Virus genome (UHGV): UHGV-0200293
Length of the DNA: 24,650 nt
Source: a virus
Strand: one strand, 5' to 3'
Below the pieces are notes generated by a model. That model was not told the origin of the DNA. It did no database searches and saw only the letters and a list, made by a program, of their open reading frames with translations. This document shows positions 1 through 24,295 of the stretch, piece after piece. Both the position numbers and the translations under genes were made by a program. Every line of letters starts with the position of its first letter. Position 1 is the first letter of the stretch.

Positions 1-271
1 CGGATTGTATGTATCTAATTTTTCTGGCTATGTTGTTGGGATATTGTTCAGTTACGTCCTTAACACATATTTTACTTTCTCGTCAAAGCCATCATTCAGA
101 AGGTTGGTTAAGTTCATTGTATGTTGTGCAGCCTGCTACGTCATCAATCTCATAGCCATGAAAACAACTATAGCATTTGGTTTTGAAAATAAATATTTAA
201 TCCAGCTGGCAGGGATGTTTTTCTATACAATCTCTGGTTTTTTAATTAATAAACTCTGGGTAATGAAATAA
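1..271 (+). CDS. gtrA: GtrA-family bactoprenol-linked glucose flippase, C-terminal 88-89 codons (5' end outside window)
   Basis: Small hydrophobic protein ending in stop that overlaps the gtrB ATG; gtrA-gtrB-gtrC order. Confidence 0.75.
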   Translation, partial: GLYVSNFSGYVVGILFSYVLNTYFTFSSKPSFRRLVKFIVCCAACYVINLIAMKTTIAFGFENKYLIQLAGMFFYTISGFLINKLWVMK

Positions 272-1227
272 TGAAAGCGCCTGTTCTTTCCATTGTTGTG
301 CCTTGCTATAATGAGCAAGATGTTTTTAGCCTTTGTCTTAATGAGTTATCATCTCGTATGAGTGAAATGAAAGACAAAGGGAAAATAGATAGAGAAAGTC
401 ATATAGTCTTTGTTGATGATGGAAGCAAAGATAATACCTGGCGATTAATAGAAGAAGCATCAAGTGACAGTTGTCTGGTGAAAGGGGTAAAACTTTCACG
501 AAATAAAGGCCATCAGACTGCATTGATGGCAGGGTTATCATCATGCACTACATCTGACATTACTGTAAGTATTGATGCTGACTTGCAAGATGACACCGCT
601 GTGATTGAAAAAATGGTTGACTCCTATCTCTCTGGTCACGACATAGTATACGGAGTAAGGAACGACAGAACCTCAGATAGTTTTTTTAAGAAGTTTACAG
701 CAGAAGCATTCTATAAGGTAATGACCAGGCTTGGTGTAAATCAGGTTGAAAATCATGCTGATTTTAGGCTGTTAAGTCGAAGGGCGCTCAACTCCCTTTT
801 ACAGTATAAAGAACAAAACCTATATATTCGGGGTCTTATCCCCCTGATCGGATATCCAAGTGATAAAGTGTACTATTCTCGTCATGAGCGAGCGGCAGGA
901 GAATCAAAGTACCCGCTCAGAAAAATGCTGGCTCTTGCCCTTGAAGGAATCACATCGTTCTCAGTAACTCCGTTGAGGATCGTAACCGCTTTAGGTTTTA
1001 TTATCTCTATACTTTCATCAATTGGAGTTATATATACTCTTGCCCAGTATTTTCTTGGACATACTGTTAGTGGATGGGCGTCGATGATTTTAGCTGTACT
1101 ATTTATAGGTGGAGTTCAAATGCTCTGCCTTGGTGTGATTGGCGAGTATATTGGTAAGATATATATTGAAAGTAAAAAAAGACCAAAGTTTTTTATTTCT
1201 GAGGTAACGGAAAATGACAAAGAATAA
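271..1227 (+). CDS. gtrB: GtrB bactoprenol glucosyltransferase (GT2 family)
   Basis: N-terminus MKAPVLSIVVPCYNEQDVF, DxD-type GT2 core, two C-terminal TM helices; 318 aa. Confidence 0.9.
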   Translation: MKAPVLSIVVPCYNEQDVFSLCLNELSSRMSEMKDKGKIDRESHIVFVDDGSKDNTWRLIEEASSDSCLVKGVKLSRNKGHQTALMAGLSSCTTSDITVSIDADLQDDTAVIEKMVDSYLSGHDIVYGVRNDRTSDSFFKKFTAEAFYKVMTRLGVNQVENHADFRLLSRRALNSLLQYKEQNLYIRGLIPLIGYPSDKVYYSRHERAAGESKYPLRKMLALALEGITSFSVTPLRIVTALGFIISILSSIGVIYTLAQYFLGHTVSGWASMILAVLFIGGVQMLCLGVIGEYIGKIYIESKKRPKFFISEVTENDKE

Positions 1228-2914
1228 TAAAGTATATTTTATATCCTTTGTGATTGTGTTAGTTTTAGCTCTGTTAAATGTGCATGTATTCATGGGTAAT
1301 GAACAGAGCGTGTACTTTTGGGACTCCAAAAATTTTTGGATGCAATGGATGAGATACGCCGATCTGTTGTTCCAGAGCCCGTTGGACTGGGGCATGTCTG
1401 TTTATACAACAGTAACAAAGGATGACTATAACGCTCTGTCTACAGCATTATTATTTCCATTTAAATTTCTGCCCATCGACTCAAGAAGTGCTTACATATA
1501 CGCTATAACCATTACATATTTAATCCCTGTAATTTTATTGGCAACATTTATTTTATTAAAAATATTTGAAAACAAGTCAGCATTCTATGTAATAACAACA
1601 GCTATTCTTGTTGTATTATATACTCCATTCTGGAAACCAACTCTTAGAGGTTTGCCTGATGTTGTCGGACTGATACCTATTCTCTGTGTGATTTATTTTA
1701 CGATAAAAAATAACTTATCAAACAGAGTATTGTTATTTAAATCAGTTTTTCTCGGCATTCTGTTATGGATGCCATTTGCATTTAGAAGATGGTATATATT
1801 TACGGTCATCACCTTATATATAACCTTGCCTTTTTTTGTGGCTTATTATCATGATGTTAAGTTTAAGTTCGAGTTAAACAAAGCAAAAAACATATTGATT
1901 AACTTTTTCATCTCAGGAATAATCACTGTTGCCCTTGCATTATTAATTCAGAAAGAGTTAATAGCCAGAATAATATCTACAGATTACTCAACCATGTATT
2001 CAGCTTACCAATATGGATTCTCAAAATCACTTATGGTGATTTTTGGAGATATTGGTTTGTTTATGATGCCATTTTTTATATTTGGCATAATTAGTGCCAT
2101 TTCAAACATTAAAACAAAGCAAAGCGTTTTTGTTCTTTTCTCTGCTTTCTCGTTTGTTATCAGTGTACTATTATTTACTGGTACTCAGACACCCGGCATT
2201 CATCATGTTCTACCATTCTCTCTGTGGTTCTTGTTTGTTTCTATTTTTGGGCTAAATTACATATCATCATTATTCAAGAGCAAGGATGCCGAACATTCTT
2301 TACTTACCATAATTATGGTAGGCATGACGCTTATATCTGTTAGCACTTTTAACAAACCATTCCCTTCTTATAAAAATGGCTTCCATATATTTCCTGATGG
2401 ATTATACCCATATAAAGTTTCCAATTTCGACGAGTACAAAAGGCTGAGTGATAGACTTGTAGCCCTTACGAATAGTGGCGATAAAATATCTGTATTTAGC
2501 TCTAACTACATCTTAAATGATGATATGTTACTTACAATATCTAATTTCAAGCTTACCCCTCGTGTATTCCGTGTATCTCAAGTAGATTTGCGCGATAAAC
2601 TCAGGATGGAAGCTTTCTCCACAAAATATGTTGTGGTTACTAACCCCATACAGTTGCATTTAAACAAGGACGGACAAAGGGTCATCTCTTACCCTGCGAC
2701 CTTATTGTTAAATAGAAAAGGTATAGGTTCGGCATATAAAAAACTTGATGAAAAATATCAACTAAGTAAAGGGGTTTCTGCATATATCTATGAAAAGCAG
2801 AGGCCATTTACTGAGTCTGAGTCCCAAGATTTTATAAAAAACATAGTTAATATGTACCCTCAATGGAATGAACTATACAATAATGCTAAGACATTAAAAT
2901 TATTATCTGAATAA
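1214..2914 (+). CDS. gtrC: GtrC-type serotype-specific O-antigen glucosyltransferase, polytopic membrane protein
   Basis: 566 aa, many TM segments, overlaps gtrB end by 14 nt; third gene of the gtr operon. Confidence 0.65.
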   Translation: MTKNNKVYFISFVIVLVLALLNVHVFMGNEQSVYFWDSKNFWMQWMRYADLLFQSPLDWGMSVYTTVTKDDYNALSTALLFPFKFLPIDSRSAYIYAITITYLIPVILLATFILLKIFENKSAFYVITTAILVVLYTPFWKPTLRGLPDVVGLIPILCVIYFTIKNNLSNRVLLFKSVFLGILLWMPFAFRRWYIFTVITLYITLPFFVAYYHDVKFKFELNKAKNILINFFISGIITVALALLIQKELIARIISTDYSTMYSAYQYGFSKSLMVIFGDIGLFMMPFFIFGIISAISNIKTKQSVFVLFSAFSFVISVLLFTGTQTPGIHHVLPFSLWFLFVSIFGLNYISSLFKSKDAEHSLLTIIMVGMTLISVSTFNKPFPSYKNGFHIFPDGLYPYKVSNFDEYKRLSDRLVALTNSGDKISVFSSNYILNDDMLLTISNFKLTPRVFRVSQVDLRDKLRMEAFSTKYVVVTNPIQLHLNKDGQRVISYPATLLLNRKGIGSAYKKLDEKYQLSKGVSAYIYEKQRPFTESESQDFIKNIVNMYPQWNELYNNAKTLKLLSE

Positions 2915-16567: not shown

Positions 16568-16596
16568 AATATATGCGTTTCAGTTCGGTTTTGCAA
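16568..16596 (-). promoter_or_regulatory. Candidate sigma-70 late promoter (pR-prime analogue) at the 3' end of the Q-like gene
   Basis: Minus strand TTGCAA-17 nt-TATATT; position matches lambda pR-prime just after Q. Confidence 0.35.
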
Positions 16597-17263
16597 GACT
16601 TACATTCGAATTTGTCGCCTTTTGTTGTAAACGTGATCGCGTTACGGAGATAAGCGCATCATTATCGAGCCGCTTAAAGACATTACGCAGTGCCAACCAG
16701 TGAGGCAGGTACGTCTCTGTCCAGGTGGATTTAGCTACGCCCACCAGCTCAGCCAGCTTCTGGTACTCGTACGTCTCGCGGCCGCACAGCTCTGCTTTGA
16801 CGTCCTGCGCCGCCAACCAGATTAACGCCCGGAGTCGCTCCAGCGTTTTTCCGGCGATTTTCTTGCCAGCGAGTTGCGCCGTAAACTTATTCCATGCCCA
16901 GCGGGTTATGTCGACCTGATATTCAAACCGAGTATTTTCACTGTAGCTCCAGAGCAACTAGGCTTTTTGATGCTCGTCGAGCGACATTAGCGCCCGACGC
17001 CATGAAGCAGTGGAGTATTCAACCGGCTGCACCAGCGGGATATGCGATCCTTTGGCGTGTGATTGTTTTCCGGGGATCGGAGGGTTGTTCAGCGTTATCA
17101 GTTTTCCCGTAACTTCATCGCGTACACGCAACCTCTTGCGGGGGTAAGTATTCGTATCGAACTGCGCGTTCTCCAGCCAGGCCATTAACTGACCCTTTGT
17201 CGCTCCGCTCAGATCTGCCGTGGCCGCAATCAGTTGCTGGCGAATATAGGATAAATTTTTCAC
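16580..17263 (-). pseudogene. Late-gene regulator (Q-antiterminator-like by position) interrupted by an in-frame amber codon
   Basis: ORF-track ORFs 16958..17263 and 16580..16957 are contiguous and in frame, separated only by TAG (16958-16960); the distal 125 codons contain no ATG; GTG start with SD GGGGA. Confidence 0.5.
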
Positions 17264-19530: not shown

Positions 19531-19552
19531 AAAAAAACCCGCCGAAGCGGGG
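19531..19552 (-). terminator. Intrinsic terminator (minus strand)
   Basis: Minus-strand RNA CCCCGC-UUCG-GCGGG followed by UUUUUUU. Confidence 0.55.
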
Positions 19553-19559
19553 TTAATCA

Positions 19560-19772
19560 TTAAGAGCATCGCGCCCTGGCTTTAATTTCTTGTCTTCCCA
19601 TACCGTGGTACCTGCGCTGATGACCACACATCCAACAGGAGCACAGACATGGTGTATGGTAGACCTTACCAAATGCAACTGGCCCACCAGAACACGCATT
19701 GCGGTAATGTCTGCGTTTTGATTTAAGCCTTGCAGCATGATGTCGGCGCAGAGCGCGCTTTTGTGATTTCAT
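19560..19772 (-). CDS. Small basic Cys/His-rich protein (70 aa), possibly zinc-binding
   Basis: RBS GGAG 7 nt before ATG; HTPCLCSCWMCGH cluster; an overlapping alternative frame (19553..19738) lacks an RBS. Confidence 0.3.
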   Translation of the reverse strand: MKSQKRALRRHHAARLKSKRRHYRNACSGGPVAFGKVYHTPCLCSCWMCGHQRRYHGMGRQEIKARARCS

Positions 19773-19913
19773 AACAGAACTCCGTAAATTTTATCGGAGC
19801 GGCCACACCTTCGCATAGCCGCCTGAACGGGAGCTCTGAATAGATTATTTTTCTCATTCTATTAATATGACATTAAAATATTCTGGACTAAAAAATAGCC
19901 TCATCGGGTTAGT

Positions 19914-20114
19914 TTACGGACGTGGATGCATCTTTCTCCATCGCTTCCAGAAACCATATTCTTGCCTAATATTGCTCTCGCAAGTAAGCCTTCCATACTT
20001 CGTTGTCGGTGGGTTAGCTATGATGCTCTCCAGCGATTCTCCAGCATCAAGGCGAGCATAAATTATGTAATCAGCCGCATTCGGATTTTTTGGCTCTGCC
20101 TTTCCAACACTCAT
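19914..20114 (-). CDS. Small putative HTH DNA-binding protein (66 aa), Ner/Cro-like?
   Basis: RBS AGGAGG 4 nt before internal ATG; ADYIIYARLDAGESLESIIA weakly resembles the Ner/Nlp HTH; first gene next to the divergent regulatory region. Confidence 0.3.
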   Translation of the reverse strand: MSVGKAEPKNPNAADYIIYARLDAGESLESIIANPPTTKYGRLTCESNIRQEYGFWKRWRKMHPRP

Positions 20115-20139
20115 GAATCCTCCTGACACTCAATGATAC

Positions 20140-20165
20140 GTGCTCTCTGATGTTATGGAGAGCAC
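20140..20165. promoter_or_regulatory. Inverted repeat GTGCTCTC-N10-GAGAGCAC in the 5' leader of the 66-aa gene
   Basis: Perfect 8-bp arms read from sequence. Confidence 0.4.
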
Positions 20166-20290
20166 ATCAGCGTAAACAAATATTATTAGGCCACGGTCTC
20201 TTTCAATACTAGGGCCTCGTCGAACGGCTGCGGCACAGCATTACCGCAGCGGGAAACCCTGCGTGGTAGATTTCGTGCAGTTGAAACATT

Positions 20291-20317
20291 AGTAATGAAG
20301 TCTGTCACTTCATTACT
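20291..20317. promoter_or_regulatory. Inverted repeat AGTAATGAAGT-CTGTC-ACTTCATTACT
   Basis: Perfect 11-bp arms, plus a third partial copy (GAAGTAATG) immediately downstream. Confidence 0.4.
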
Positions 20318-20365
20318 GAAGAAGTAATGTAACTATCATATTTTAAATATCTGAAAATAACTATA

Positions 20366-20385
20366 CAATTCAATAAATTGAATTG
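20366..20385. promoter_or_regulatory. 20-bp palindrome CAATTCAAT-AA-ATTGAATTG before the lipoprotein gene
   Basis: Perfect 9-bp arms, 20 bp upstream of the lipoprotein ATG. Confidence 0.4.
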
Positions 20386-20405
20386 CAGCATGACGGGAAA
20401 CATAT

Positions 20406-20810
20406 ATGATAAAATTTTTAATGTTGATTGTGGTGACATTAACCATTGCAGGTTGCTCCCCTCTTGCACCTACAGGCTGTCAGAAAAAAAACGCAATGGA
20501 ATCATGCGAATATAAGAGTTCAGGTAAAGTGTCGGATAAGGATATATATGGATGGTACTCATCCAGAATAAAAAAAGCTTTGGACGCAGCACTTACAGAG
20601 CCCCATGCCTGGAATGGTAAAAGATGTGACGCTCATCTGGATTTCAAAGTCGATGGCACCCTGCAAAATTTTATCGTGAAAGGTGGTGACAAAGATTATT
20701 GCGCTGCATTGCAAAAAGCTTCTGAAAGAGCGACATTCCCGGCGTTTACCGATCGGAGAGTTTACTTTAATATGGGTTCCGCAAGATGGAACTTCGAAGG
20801 TCAGCCATGA
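20406..20810 (+). CDS. Lipoprotein with TolA C-terminal (domain III)-like domain
   Basis: Signal peptide with lipobox LTIAGC; C-terminus GKRCDAHLDFKVDGTLQNFIVKGGDKDYCAALQKA...FPAF aligns with E. coli TolA GKTCTLRIKLAPDGMLLDIKPEGGDPALCQAALAAA...IPKPP (from memory). Confidence 0.6.
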   Translation: MIKFLMLIVVTLTIAGCSPLAPTGCQKKNAMESCEYKSSGKVSDKDIYGWYSSRIKKALDAALTEPHAWNGKRCDAHLDFKVDGTLQNFIVKGGDKDYCAALQKASERATFPAFTDRRVYFNMGSARWNFEGQP

Positions 20811-21093
20811 AAACTATGGTGCGCCGGGAGATCCCCGGCGTTCTCAACCTGAGAAAAAACCATTTTCACTTCTGCTGGTCAAACAGCTTCCTCAACATCC
20901 ACCAGCAGCAGGTTTTCCAGCTCTATAATCCGATTGGTGGTGTATTGCAGAAGTTGATCCATCATGCCTCCTGCTGCGGTGCTGCTGGCAGTGGCATCCA
21001 GTGAGTTGGCTTGCAATAAACACCACCACCATTCGGAAGTGATGCAAACCTAAACCATCCATCTGTTTCATTGTGCTCAATGTATCCGACCAT

Positions 21094-21381
21094 CTACTCT
21101 TTCTTATCAGCGCAGTAAACCTGAACATCAACATCGCGATCCGGCATCCGCTCGCTTACCGGAATCCATCTGCCTGGCAACTTGTAAGCGTCACTTACAG
21201 GTTCATCGTTCTGAGCATCACGCAGAGCACAAAAGACTTTATTACGCAATTCGTTGAACTCGTCAGAGCGAATAACCCTGCGCCAGTCCAGCGCATGAGC
21301 GTACAGGAAATCACTGGCGAGGTTAGCACCACGACCAGCGCGCAGGAATCGGCAACTAACGTTGATGCCGTTGCCGACGAT
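21094..21381 (-). pseudogene. Remnant of a DUF551-like phage early gene (no start codon, truncated)
   Basis: Minus-frame translation ...LDWRRVIRSDEFNELRNKVFCALRDAQNDEPVSDAYKLPGRWIPVSERMPDRDVDVQVYCADKKE* is open without any usable start; W-I-x-V-S-E-R-M-P motif resembles DUF551. Confidence 0.3.
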
Positions 21382-22048: not shown

Positions 22049-22264
22049 ATGTCACAGGTAATTTTTAACGAAGAGTGGGTTGTTGAGTCCAGACTTACCG
22101 AAAGAACAGGGCTTACTGAAGGACAGATTAAAAATTATCGCCTGAAGCTATGGGTTGAAGGTGTTCACTTCAAGCGCCTTACTGCGCTTGGACAGACTGA
22201 CAACTCTAAAGGTCTGCTTTGGTACAACTACCCGAAGATTAATCAGTTAGTTCAGGATGCTTAA
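22049..22264 (+). CDS. Excisionase-like protein
   Basis: 71 aa immediately upstream of and overlapping the integrase start; RBS GAGGTG. Confidence 0.5.
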   Translation: MSQVIFNEEWVVESRLTERTGLTEGQIKNYRLKLWVEGVHFKRLTALGQTDNSKGLLWYNYPKINQLVQDA

Positions 22265-23550
22265 TGAAATACCCGACTGGTGTTGAACTGCATAACGGAA
22301 AAATCAGGATCACATTTATCTATCGCGGCATTCGTTGCCGCGAAGTTCTCCAGGGTTGGGTTGTCAACAGTAGCAACATTAAAAAAGCGGGCAATCTGCG
22401 CGCAGCAATTGTGAGTGAGATACAACTCGGTAAGTTCGACTACGCAGATCGTTTCCCGGAATCAAAAGCTCTTAAGAAATTTTCGTCCACAAAACGGATC
22501 TCCACATTCAAAGAACTGAGTGATTTTTTTACAGATACAAAGTCACTGGAGGTATCTGAAGCCACTTTGCTATCCATCACATCAGTCGTTAACACCCTGA
22601 AACGAGTCGTGGGCGAGAACACACGGCTGGTTGATATTCAGCACGCAGATATTCTGAATTACCGCAAAGAACTCCTGACCGGGGAAGTTTTCAACCCTTC
22701 AATACCAAACCGCATCAAAAATGGGCGCGCGCCCTCAACAGTCAATAAACAGATGGCTGTTTTATCAGAAATGCTGAAGCTTGCAAACCGAAGCCAGTTT
22801 ATATTGCATGCTCCTTATGAAGGAGTGTCGCGACTCAAGTTATCTAAAAATGATCCCGACCCACTTTTACTTCATGAGTACCAGGCACTGATAGCCGCCC
22901 TTCCCCGTAGCCAGGCATTAATCATCATTATTGCGGTACATACAGGGATGAGGCCGGGCGAGATATGCGCACTGGCATGGGAAGATATTGATTTGGTAAA
23001 AGGTGAAATCCACGTATCCAGAAATTTGACGAACAAGCAAGTATTTGTACCCCCTAAAACAGATGCCGGGATAAGGACGATAACGTTGCTGAAACCTGCT
23101 CATGATGCTCTGCTGGAGCAATACGAAATCACTGGGAACAGTCCAAAACAGGAAATTCAGTTTCATCATCGTGAGATCGGAAAAACTGAGCAGCAATATC
23201 TTCGCTTCGTTTTTTCACCGACAACATACTCGTCAACGAAAGGCGGTTACTTTTCCAAGGACTCGATTTCGTATGGCTGGAAACGTGGGACTAAACTTTC
23301 AGGTATACGTGAGCGCAATCCATATCAGTCGCGTCACACATATGCCTGCTGGACGCTGATGGCCGGAGCGACCCCGTCGTTCATTGCCAGCCAGATGGGA
23401 CATGAAGATGCGCGGATGGTATACGAGGTTTACTCCAAGTGGATTGGTGATATGAACCAGGATCAGGTCAACATGCTGAACAATCAGATGCCGACAGCAC
23501 TGCCTCCAGGACGCCCCCAAGGGCGAGGGAGTATGAAAAAAGTCATTTAA
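22264..23550 (+). CDS. int: Tyrosine-type site-specific integrase
   Basis: 428 aa; C-terminal catalytic region with SRHTYA and GHEDARMVYEVY; at the prophage end next to the host gene. Confidence 0.85.
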   Translation: MKYPTGVELHNGKIRITFIYRGIRCREVLQGWVVNSSNIKKAGNLRAAIVSEIQLGKFDYADRFPESKALKKFSSTKRISTFKELSDFFTDTKSLEVSEATLLSITSVVNTLKRVVGENTRLVDIQHADILNYRKELLTGEVFNPSIPNRIKNGRAPSTVNKQMAVLSEMLKLANRSQFILHAPYEGVSRLKLSKNDPDPLLLHEYQALIAALPRSQALIIIIAVHTGMRPGEICALAWEDIDLVKGEIHVSRNLTNKQVFVPPKTDAGIRTITLLKPAHDALLEQYEITGNSPKQEIQFHHREIGKTEQQYLRFVFSPTTYSSTKGGYFSKDSISYGWKRGTKLSGIRERNPYQSRHTYACWTLMAGATPSFIASQMGHEDARMVYEVYSKWIGDMNQDQVNMLNNQMPTALPPGRPQGRGSMKKVI

Positions 23551-23620
23551 TTTCATAGCGCTGGTTTCAATCCACATAATCAGCGTTAAACTACTAATAC
23601 CGTTAATTTAGGGAGAAAAG

Positions 23621-24295
23621 ATGATGCGCGTACTGGTTGTCGAAGATAATGCCTTATTACGCCACCACCTGAAGGTTCAATTACAGGATTTGGGGCACCA
23701 GGTTGATGACGCAGAAGATGCAAAGGAAGCCGATTATTATCTTAACGAGCATCTGCCGGACATCGCCATCGTCGATTTAGGCCTCCCGGATGAAGACGGG
23801 CTTTCGCTGATCCGCCGCTGGCGCAGCAATGACGTTTCCCTTCCTGTTCTGGTATTAACCGCCCGTGAGGGCTGGCAGGATAAAGTGGAAGTGCTGAGCG
23901 CCGGCGCCGACGACTACGTGACAAAACCGTTTCATATTGAAGAAGTGGTCGCGCGTATGCAGGCGTTAATGCGCCGCAACAGCGGCCTGGCCTCGCAGGT
24001 TATCTCTATTCCGCCTTTTCAGGTGGATCTCTCCCGCCGTGAATTGTCCGTAAATGATGAAGTGATAAAATTGACGGCGTTTGAATACACCATTATGGAA
24101 ACGCTGATCCGCAATAATGGCAAAGTCGTCAGCAAAGATTCGTTGATGCTACAGCTCTACCCGGATGCGGAACTGCGTGAAAGCCATACCATTGATGTAT
24201 TAATGGGGCGCTTACGCAAAAAAATTCAGGCGCGATATCCTGATGATGTGATTACCACCGTCCGTGGTCAGGGATACCTGTTCGAACTGCGCTAA
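23621..24295 (+). CDS. phoP: Two-component response regulator PhoP
   Basis: Near-identical along its length to enterobacterial PhoP ([19 protein letters not shown]...TVRGQGY.FELR); real start may be the second Met at 23624. Confidence 0.95.

Follow-up and report, generated by a model that had tools for sequence, protein, structure and literature searches.

A prophage lipoprotein carrying TolA domain III is a candidate competitor for Tol-dependent bacteriocins and phages

Why would a prophage carry a small lipoprotein that ends in a domain of the host protein TolA? The question arises at positions 20406–20810 of the virus genome UHGV-0200293, a stretch of 24,650 nucleotides that we analyzed as a whole and call the window, where an open reading frame (ORF) on the plus strand starts at ATG and encodes 134 amino acids (aa). 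An original prediction, made from the DNA letters alone, described the product as a lipoprotein whose C-terminal region aligns with domain III of TolA (TolA-III) and proposed that it acts as a decoy against colicins or Tol-dependent phages. We find that the protein carries a true TolA-III, confirmed by sequence and by fold. The decoy idea is plausible, and its support is circumstantial: a predicted outer-membrane tether, relatives on IncI1 plasmids, and a Klebsiella gene pair that joins a TolA-III lipoprotein to a TonB_C protein.

Residues 48–126 match the Pfam family PF06519 (TolA C-terminal) over profile positions 13–92 of 96 (E = 9.2e-11; 42.2 bits against a cut-off of 25), and a phmmer search of PDB sequences returned only TolA-III chains (2x9a, 3qdp, 1s62, and 1tol; E about 1e-5). 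The residue-for-residue correspondence that the original prediction had described is borne out by these PDB alignments, in which every motif that it had named has its counterpart in Escherichia coli TolA-III: G71-K-R-C74, D83-G-T-L86, G93-G-D-K-D-Y-C99-A-A-L102, and F111-P112. The phmmer alignments also place Cys74 and Cys99 on the TolA-III cysteine pair, which forms a disulfide. An AlphaFold2 (AF2) model computed from 23 homologues has predicted local distance difference test (pLDDT) scores above 90 across residues 45–131, with a helix (47–62), a short helix (66–69), two strands (73–80 and 86–94), two further helices (96–106 and 117–123), and a last strand (125–131). When the model was compared with the PDB using Foldseek, the best nine matches were all TolA-III structures, from E. 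coli, Vibrio cholerae, and Pseudomonas aeruginosa (E down to 1e-7, target-normalised template-modelling score 0.86–0.90, root-mean-square deviation 1.1–1.5 Å). TonB C-terminal domains, which the original prediction had named beside TolA-III for structural comparison, are far weaker (E > 6e-3), and because both Foldseek and profile scores favor TolA-III, TonB is ruled out as the better assignment.

Outside this domain the protein departs from TolA. Host TolA (PF06519; 1tol, 1s62, 2x9a, 3qdp, and 3qdr) shares with it the fold, the cysteine pair, the GKxC, DGxL, and GGDxxxCxAAL motifs, and the edge strand, whereas the transmembrane anchor of TolA (domain I) and its long domain II are both absent from the 134-aa protein, which has an extra Cys-containing N-terminal module. 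The TolA equivalogs PRK09510 and TIGR02794 are missed (42.2 bits against 213 and 33.5 against 59.45), with only the last ~100 model positions matching; the missed cut-offs and the absent domains rule out full-length TolA. The names "tolA family protein," "protein TolA," and "colicin import membrane protein" are domain-transfer labels that assign no function, and they are misleading because the equivalog cut-offs are missed and only the C-terminal part matches.

The N terminus has the lipoprotein signal peptide that the original prediction had claimed. The lipobox LTIAGC, in which I-A-G-C17 is followed by Ser-Pro, fits the pattern [LVI][ASTVI][GAS]C after a hydrophobic region and has no Asp at position +2. 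Cys17 is invariant in 23 homologues, which have S, A, T, or V but no D at +2. In Enterobacterales, Ser at +2 leads to Lol sorting to the outer membrane, and because the protein has Ser at this position it is probably an outer-membrane lipoprotein. Host TolA is anchored in the inner membrane; since a lipobox replaces that anchor, the tether of the window protein would lie on the opposite membrane. Between Cys17 and the domain is a family-specific module, in or near which P19, P22, K27, C34, G40, V42, D44, D46, and G49 are invariant and a Cys25–Cys34 disulfide is likely. AF2 confidence over this module is low (pLDDT about 57–61).

Could the gene be a nonfunctional relic, a piece of TolA that was once captured and now drifts in a dead prophage? 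The surrounding prophage is indeed defective and domesticated, because its gene for the antiterminator Q (16580–17263, minus strand) has an in-frame TAG at 16958–16960 where the homologue in an intact Citrobacter koseri prophage (L004) has TGG (Trp), its DUF551 gene (20962–21249, minus strand) has another at 21094–21096, and the replication and immunity region (O, P, and repressor in L004) has been lost. Despite these nonsense codons the gene at 20406–20810 is intact, and so is the ORF in 17/17 loci examined, which span seven genera. Purifying selection is evident from the median pairwise proportion of nonsynonymous differences (pN), 0.17 against 0.75 for synonymous differences (pS) at saturated synonymous sites, and from a ratio of nonsynonymous to synonymous substitution rates (dN/dS) of about 0.11 where dS was calculable. 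The ratio pN/pS is 0.16 in the TolA-III part and 0.23 in the N-terminal module (aa 17–46). Cys17 of the lipobox is invariant, as are C34, C74, C99, M123, S125, R127, W128, G132, and P134, and C25 is present in at least 90% of sequences. The confident AF2 domain model also speaks against a relic, which we regard as highly improbable and which the selection analysis effectively refutes.

Close homologues (61–73% identical) occur in Citrobacter, Pluralibacter, Serratia, Pantoea, Enterobacter, Erwinia, Rouxiella, and Yersinia frederiksenii. Their distribution is patchy and accessory, because only 19 loci came out of a pattern scan across 185,579 species-representative genomes, and three of these are C-terminal fragments of 22–40 residues (L029–L031). 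At greater distance, a phmmer search of 1.84 billion cluster representatives returned 59 clusters (50% identity) at E ≤ 1e-3, nearly all 115–160 aa long, and nearly all of the 39 distant clusters that were retrieved begin with a lipobox. Since this length and the lipobox recur throughout nearly all distant clusters, the lipid-anchored "mini-TolA" is a recurrent architecture whose tether has been selected, not a one-off truncation.

Within the prophage the gene belongs to a discrete cassette that, as far as its letters tell, has the anatomy of a moron (Table 1). The cassette is 97.6% identical to L004 9803–10555 and 95–97% identical to three viral contigs in IMG/VR (L034–L036), which have equal boundaries; the flanks are unrelated. 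The gene itself was found in L004 and in five IMG/VR viral contigs (95–98% DNA and 96–99% protein identity), of which three share the cassette boundaries. Its position in the nin region and these copies uphold the claim that it is prophage-borne; the L004 copy (99% identical) also runs antisense within the nin region, where it is flanked by a dATP/dGTP-pyrophosphohydrolase-like gene and dinI. A megablast search of E. coli genomes with the cassette found no copy, and only a fragment of the neighboring DUF551 gene matched. The promoter candidate is kept in L004 and L034–L036. Downstream, the RNA fold of 20806–20860 (−20.3 kcal/mol, z-score −3.55) contains the GC-rich hairpin, which a consensus terminator scan missed; because no U-run follows, it is a weak terminator candidate.

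The palindrome-rich surroundings described in the original prediction are real, with a 9-bp inverted repeat that may be an operator and two hairpins upstream of the gene (20291–20317 and 20140–20165). They are less striking than had been stated, with promoter-like and terminator-like sites no more frequent than in shuffled sequence and a palindrome that has a G-to-T change in one arm in L034 and L035 and is absent in L037. As a conserved operator the palindrome was rejected, given its partial conservation among prophage copies and its absence from chromosomal copies. Upstream of chromosomal orthologues the sequence differs, with a conserved TGnCATAAT element and ribosome-binding region of its own.

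What could a TolA-III in this position do? TolB, colicin N, and the phage gene-3 protein (g3p) compete for one site on TolA-III, and its ligands bind the C-terminal strand (D418, K420) by backbone β-strand addition, in which strand propensity outweighs sequence (PMC4339652). In the model of the window protein, S125–E131 is predicted to form the corresponding strand, with N129 and E131 aligned to D418 and K420 of TolA and no proline there. We tentatively favor a reading, to which we give somewhat less than an even chance, in which the product is a mini-TolA anchored in the outer membrane, its module of ~30 residues, braced by a disulfide, holding TolA-III just beneath that membrane. Because it has neither domain I nor domain II, the protein could not couple to the TolQR motor. 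It would compete with host TolA-III for ligands that add a β-strand to the C-terminal edge strand, candidates being the epitopes by which group A colicin-like bacteriocins bind TolA, the N1 domain of filamentous-phage pIII, and/or the N terminus of TolB that those invaders need. Invader epitopes may be intercepted while emerging through porins, and/or the TolB N terminus may be captured; ligands so held would not be energized, their import would be arrested, and tolerance to Tol-dependent bacteriocins and filamentous phages would result. Such a dead-end competitor would be expected because the edge strand is kept on a TolA-III that is predicted to sit at the outer membrane with no coupling to TolQR. 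Since the gene appears to form a moron that is complete in itself, brings a promoter-like element, and runs antisense to the early operon of the phage, it would probably be expressed from the prophage to the benefit of the lysogen.

The principle has experimental precedents. Export of TolA-III to the periplasm, or expression of filamentous-phage g3p in the host, brings colicin tolerance and phage resistance, and Levengood-Freyermuth, Click and Webster reportedly found in 1993 that E. coli exporting isolated TolA-III to the periplasm is colicin-tolerant and leaky. As in our proposal, the interface where TolA-III meets its ligands is occupied by a competitor that is uncoupled; these cases are, however, experimental constructs or the phage's own g3p, whereas the window protein is natural, lipid-anchored, and diverged, and its family resides on prophages, plasmids, and chromosomal islets. 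Cor (phages phi80, N15, and HK022), Llp (T5), and TraT (F-like plasmids) likewise exclude phages and colicins by acting where these are taken up; they are small lipoproteins encoded by moron or accessory genes of mobile elements, and they resemble the window protein in its predicted site at the periplasmic face of the outer membrane and in the predicted resistance to phages and colicins that have an uptake route in common. Cor and Llp target the receptor FhuA. In contrast to these receptor-directed proteins, the window protein would mimic a periplasmic energy-transducer domain, and it has no sequence relationship to Cor.

Genes with the same layout of lipobox, short linker, and TolA-III are found on IncI1 plasmids, in E. 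coli prophages, and on Klebsiella ColRNAI and IncFIB plasmids. A tblastn search located relatives on 1,279 plasmids, with about 590 full-length matches (36–38% identity) on IncI1-type MOBP/MPF_I plasmids of E. coli and Shigella. Where its context was inspected, the IncI1-type gene lies directly downstream of the relaxase gene nikB and faces trbC (L002 3555–3986); its product has a VAGC lipobox and the CxPLxPxxCxK...C module of the window protein. This subfamily comprises more than 335 clusters at 90% identity, all with generic names only. As a side observation, the annotated start of the gene in L002 adds 12 residues upstream of the likely Met.

Some of these relatives have neighbors associated with defense or bacteriocins. 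On a 10-kb ColRNAI plasmid of Klebsiella pneumoniae (L006 3877–4610), a lipoprotein mini-TolA gene overlaps a gene for a TonB_C protein with a signal peptide (E = 8.9e-11), and this two-gene unit, which could represent paired Tol and Ton decoys, adjoins an operon for a tRNase bacteriocin, its immunity protein, and lysis. On Klebsiella IncFIB plasmids (L033 1–6249) the mini-TolA gene follows a thioredoxin-fold gene near an ATPase/UvrD-helicase pair that we read as Gabija-like, and in Serratia marcescens (L040 7001–9736) a copy of the IncI1-type subfamily stands beside a GmrSD_N/HEPN pair. These associations are anecdotal and lean toward protection against invaders. IncI pili are the receptors for phage If1, whose g3p binds TolA-III, and the PDB entry 2x9a, matched here by both phmmer and Foldseek, is the complex of If1 g3p with TolA-III. 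A broader reading, which we consider possible and rather doubtful, is that mobile elements of Enterobacterales widely carry a lipid-anchored, motor-uncoupled mini-TolA, joined on some plasmids by a secreted mini-TonB, as a general layer of immunity beneath the outer membrane against Tol- and Ton-dependent bacteriocins and pilus-specific filamentous phages. The window gene would then be its prophage-moron representative, and the IncI1 copy would guard the plasmid host against I-pilus phages such as If1.

A number of observations weigh against a protein directed at invaders. The family is not specific to prophages: most close orthologues are solitary chromosomal genes, and outside C. koseri the copies stand alone among housekeeping genes with no conserved neighbor. 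Around 16 chromosomal copies we found no conserved partner gene; defense-like neighbors are sporadic, and the recurring neighbor clusters are generic LysR and ABC paralogues. A search of PADLOC-DB 2.0 returned no family at E ≤ 0.01, and counts of promoter-like and terminator-like sites in the region scan do not exceed those in shuffled sequence. The domain shares 24–26% identity with E. coli TolA-III, and its motifs near the ligand site diverge, FPAF replacing IPKPP and ARWN[FM]EGQP replacing APLDFKP. A TolA-III competitor could also damage the host Tol-Pal system, so that its benefit would be dose-dependent, and the conserved N-terminal Cys module is among the main caveats. Finally, the C-terminal edge strand is family-specific and near-invariant across genera, which suggests one conserved partner over diverse invader ligands; conservation this high fits a partner such as the TolB N terminus at least as well as it fits fast-evolving ligands of invaders.

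A near-invariant edge strand is what would be expected of a host-envelope modulator that binds TolB or Pal at the outer membrane and dampens Tol-Pal, with tolerance to colicins and phages as a side effect. Its outcome could be increased vesiculation, a lysogen with changed permeability or surface properties, or assistance in disrupting the outer membrane at lysis. The solitary position of most orthologues among chromosomal housekeeping genes favors this explanation, as do E. coli prophages, in which tandem mini-TolA lipoprotein genes stand on the late-operon strand, with Q on one side and the lysis genes on the other. The same arrangement is present in Escherichia phage mEp460_ev081 (L001 4416–5390), source of the one homologue in the phage collection (38.6% identity), and the tandem pair occurs in 776/5426 complete E. 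coli genomes (coverage ≥ 80%). In the window and in L004, however, the gene is antisense to early and late transcription, so the window gene would not be made as a late gene. Moreover, a weakened Tol-Pal system is normally costly, and the bacteriocin operon and mini-TonB beside the Klebsiella copy point to invaders. Modulation of the host envelope therefore seems unlikely to us as the primary role.

The tandem pair also bears on whether all these proteins bind the same ligands. Its first gene encodes a protein 54% identical to E. coli TolA-III and its second a protein 38.6% identical to the window protein, and the family divides along this line. A diverged clade (the window protein, the IncI1 proteins, and E. 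coli gene 2) is 24–28% identical to E. coli TolA-III and is marked by FPAF and by a C-terminal strand of its own. Within it, the products of the IncI1 gene and of E. coli gene 2 are 35–38% identical to the window protein, and both have the CxPLxPxxCxK module. The second, TolA-like clade, to which the window protein does not belong, consists of gene 1 of the E. coli pair together with the genes from Klebsiella plasmids (42–54% identical to TolA-III, with IPxPP and NAPLDF[KR]P). Because E. coli prophages hold one gene of each clade in tandem, different specificities are suggested.

One way to account for such a difference is that the TolA/TonB-type fold was exapted in the window clade to bind another outer-membrane partner, for example the periplasmic face or Ton/Tol-box of a receptor or porin, blocking it as Cor and Llp block FhuA, with a contribution from the N-terminal Cys module. 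The distance of this clade from TolA-III is compatible with exaptation, as is an N-terminal module (aa 18–46) that is clade-specific and as conserved as the domain, and receptor-blocking outer-membrane lipoproteins such as Cor and Llp are an established class of prophage exclusion proteins. On the other side, the fold is much nearer to TolA-III than to TonB C-terminal domains, and the gene neighborhood points to no partner. The Cor superinfection-exclusion family (phrog_1119) was tried as an assignment and rejected, its match being nonsignificant (E = 0.074) and confined to residues 1–37 in the signal peptide region. On balance we think it improbable that the fold has been turned to such a partner, and we return to the motor-uncoupled competitor for Tol ligands as the preferred reading.

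The domain call itself is already public, in the PGAP product name and in precomputed Pfam hits, and the family already exists as phrog_5772 (E = 3.1e-24, residues 5–124 against profile positions 4–120 of 128), which is without functional annotation. Among viral structures in BFVD there was no TolA-III-like fold (best E = 0.08). The full-text literature that we searched, which excludes subscription-only papers, contains no functional study of TolA-like prophage or plasmid lipoproteins; apparent matches came from authors named Tolar, from RAST labels listed in supplements, and from one plasmid comparison that noted the presence of the gene. We tentatively class the window protein as a mobile-element exclusion lipoprotein built from a mimic of an energy-transducer domain. 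If the competitor model is right, some of the widespread colicin tolerance seen among natural isolates would have an explanation, receptor-domain mimicry would join the exclusion functions of prophages and plasmids, and the model would suggest that conjugative plasmids guard their hosts against filamentous phages that exploit the plasmids' own pili. Because the genes of this large class, misnamed "tolA family protein," are so common (776/5426 E. coli genomes, ~1,280 plasmids), simple spot assays with colicins and phages could assign a function to it. Mini-TolAs would also lend themselves naturally to probing the TolA-TolB-Pal interface, itself a target of bacteriocin-based antibacterials.

Table 1. 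Features of the lipoprotein gene and its cassette in the window
Feature	Position	Strand	Basis
Moron cassette, 757 bp: upstream region, gene, and downstream hairpin (putative)	20208..20964	+	Comparison with related prophages
Sigma-70-like promoter candidate: TTTAAA, 16-nt spacer, TACAAT	20342..20369	+	Consensus scan, 9/12 matches
Perfect palindrome, 9-bp inverted repeat CAATTCAAT-AA-ATTGAATTG	20366..20385	.	Overlaps candidate -10 element
Signal peptide and lipobox, MIKFLMLIVVTLTIAG then C	20406..20456	+	Sequence reading; Cys17 is the predicted lipidated residue
Family-specific N-terminal module, aa 18–46, xPLxPxxCxK...A...C...SGKVxDxDxYG	20457..20543	+	Alignment of homologues
TolA domain III, aa 47–134: helix, two strands, two helices, C-terminal edge strand	20544..20807	+	Pfam, PDB alignments, AF2, Foldseek
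GC-rich hairpin, 8-bp stem, 11 nt past the stop codon	20821..20841	+	RNA fold

The prophage as a whole is lambdoid and adjoins the host gene phoP, whose product scores 475 bits with the PhoP equivalog (cut-off 336). Read from high to low coordinates, its minus strand carries genes for DinI, NinB, NinG, antiterminator Q, endolysin, Rz, terminase, portal, and head proteins; the right end of its plus strand has genes for an excisionase (22049–22264) and an integrase (22264–23550), the latter abutting phoP (region 22264–24295, plus strand). No tRNA gene lies anywhere in the window, which means that the site of attachment is not a tRNA. L004 lacks a stretch of about 650 bp that separates dinI from the cassette in the window (19551–20208); this stretch holds a 70-aa phrog_4499 gene (19560–19772, minus strand) along with the hairpin at 20140–20165. 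At the far end of the prophage, 271–2914 (plus strand) encodes a family-2 glycosyltransferase of 318 aa, whose best NCBIfam match is of the polyprenyl-phosphate glycosyltransferase type and which overlaps a 566-aa ORF with 33% GC and no family match; this region is possibly a gtrB/gtrC-like O-antigen modification module.

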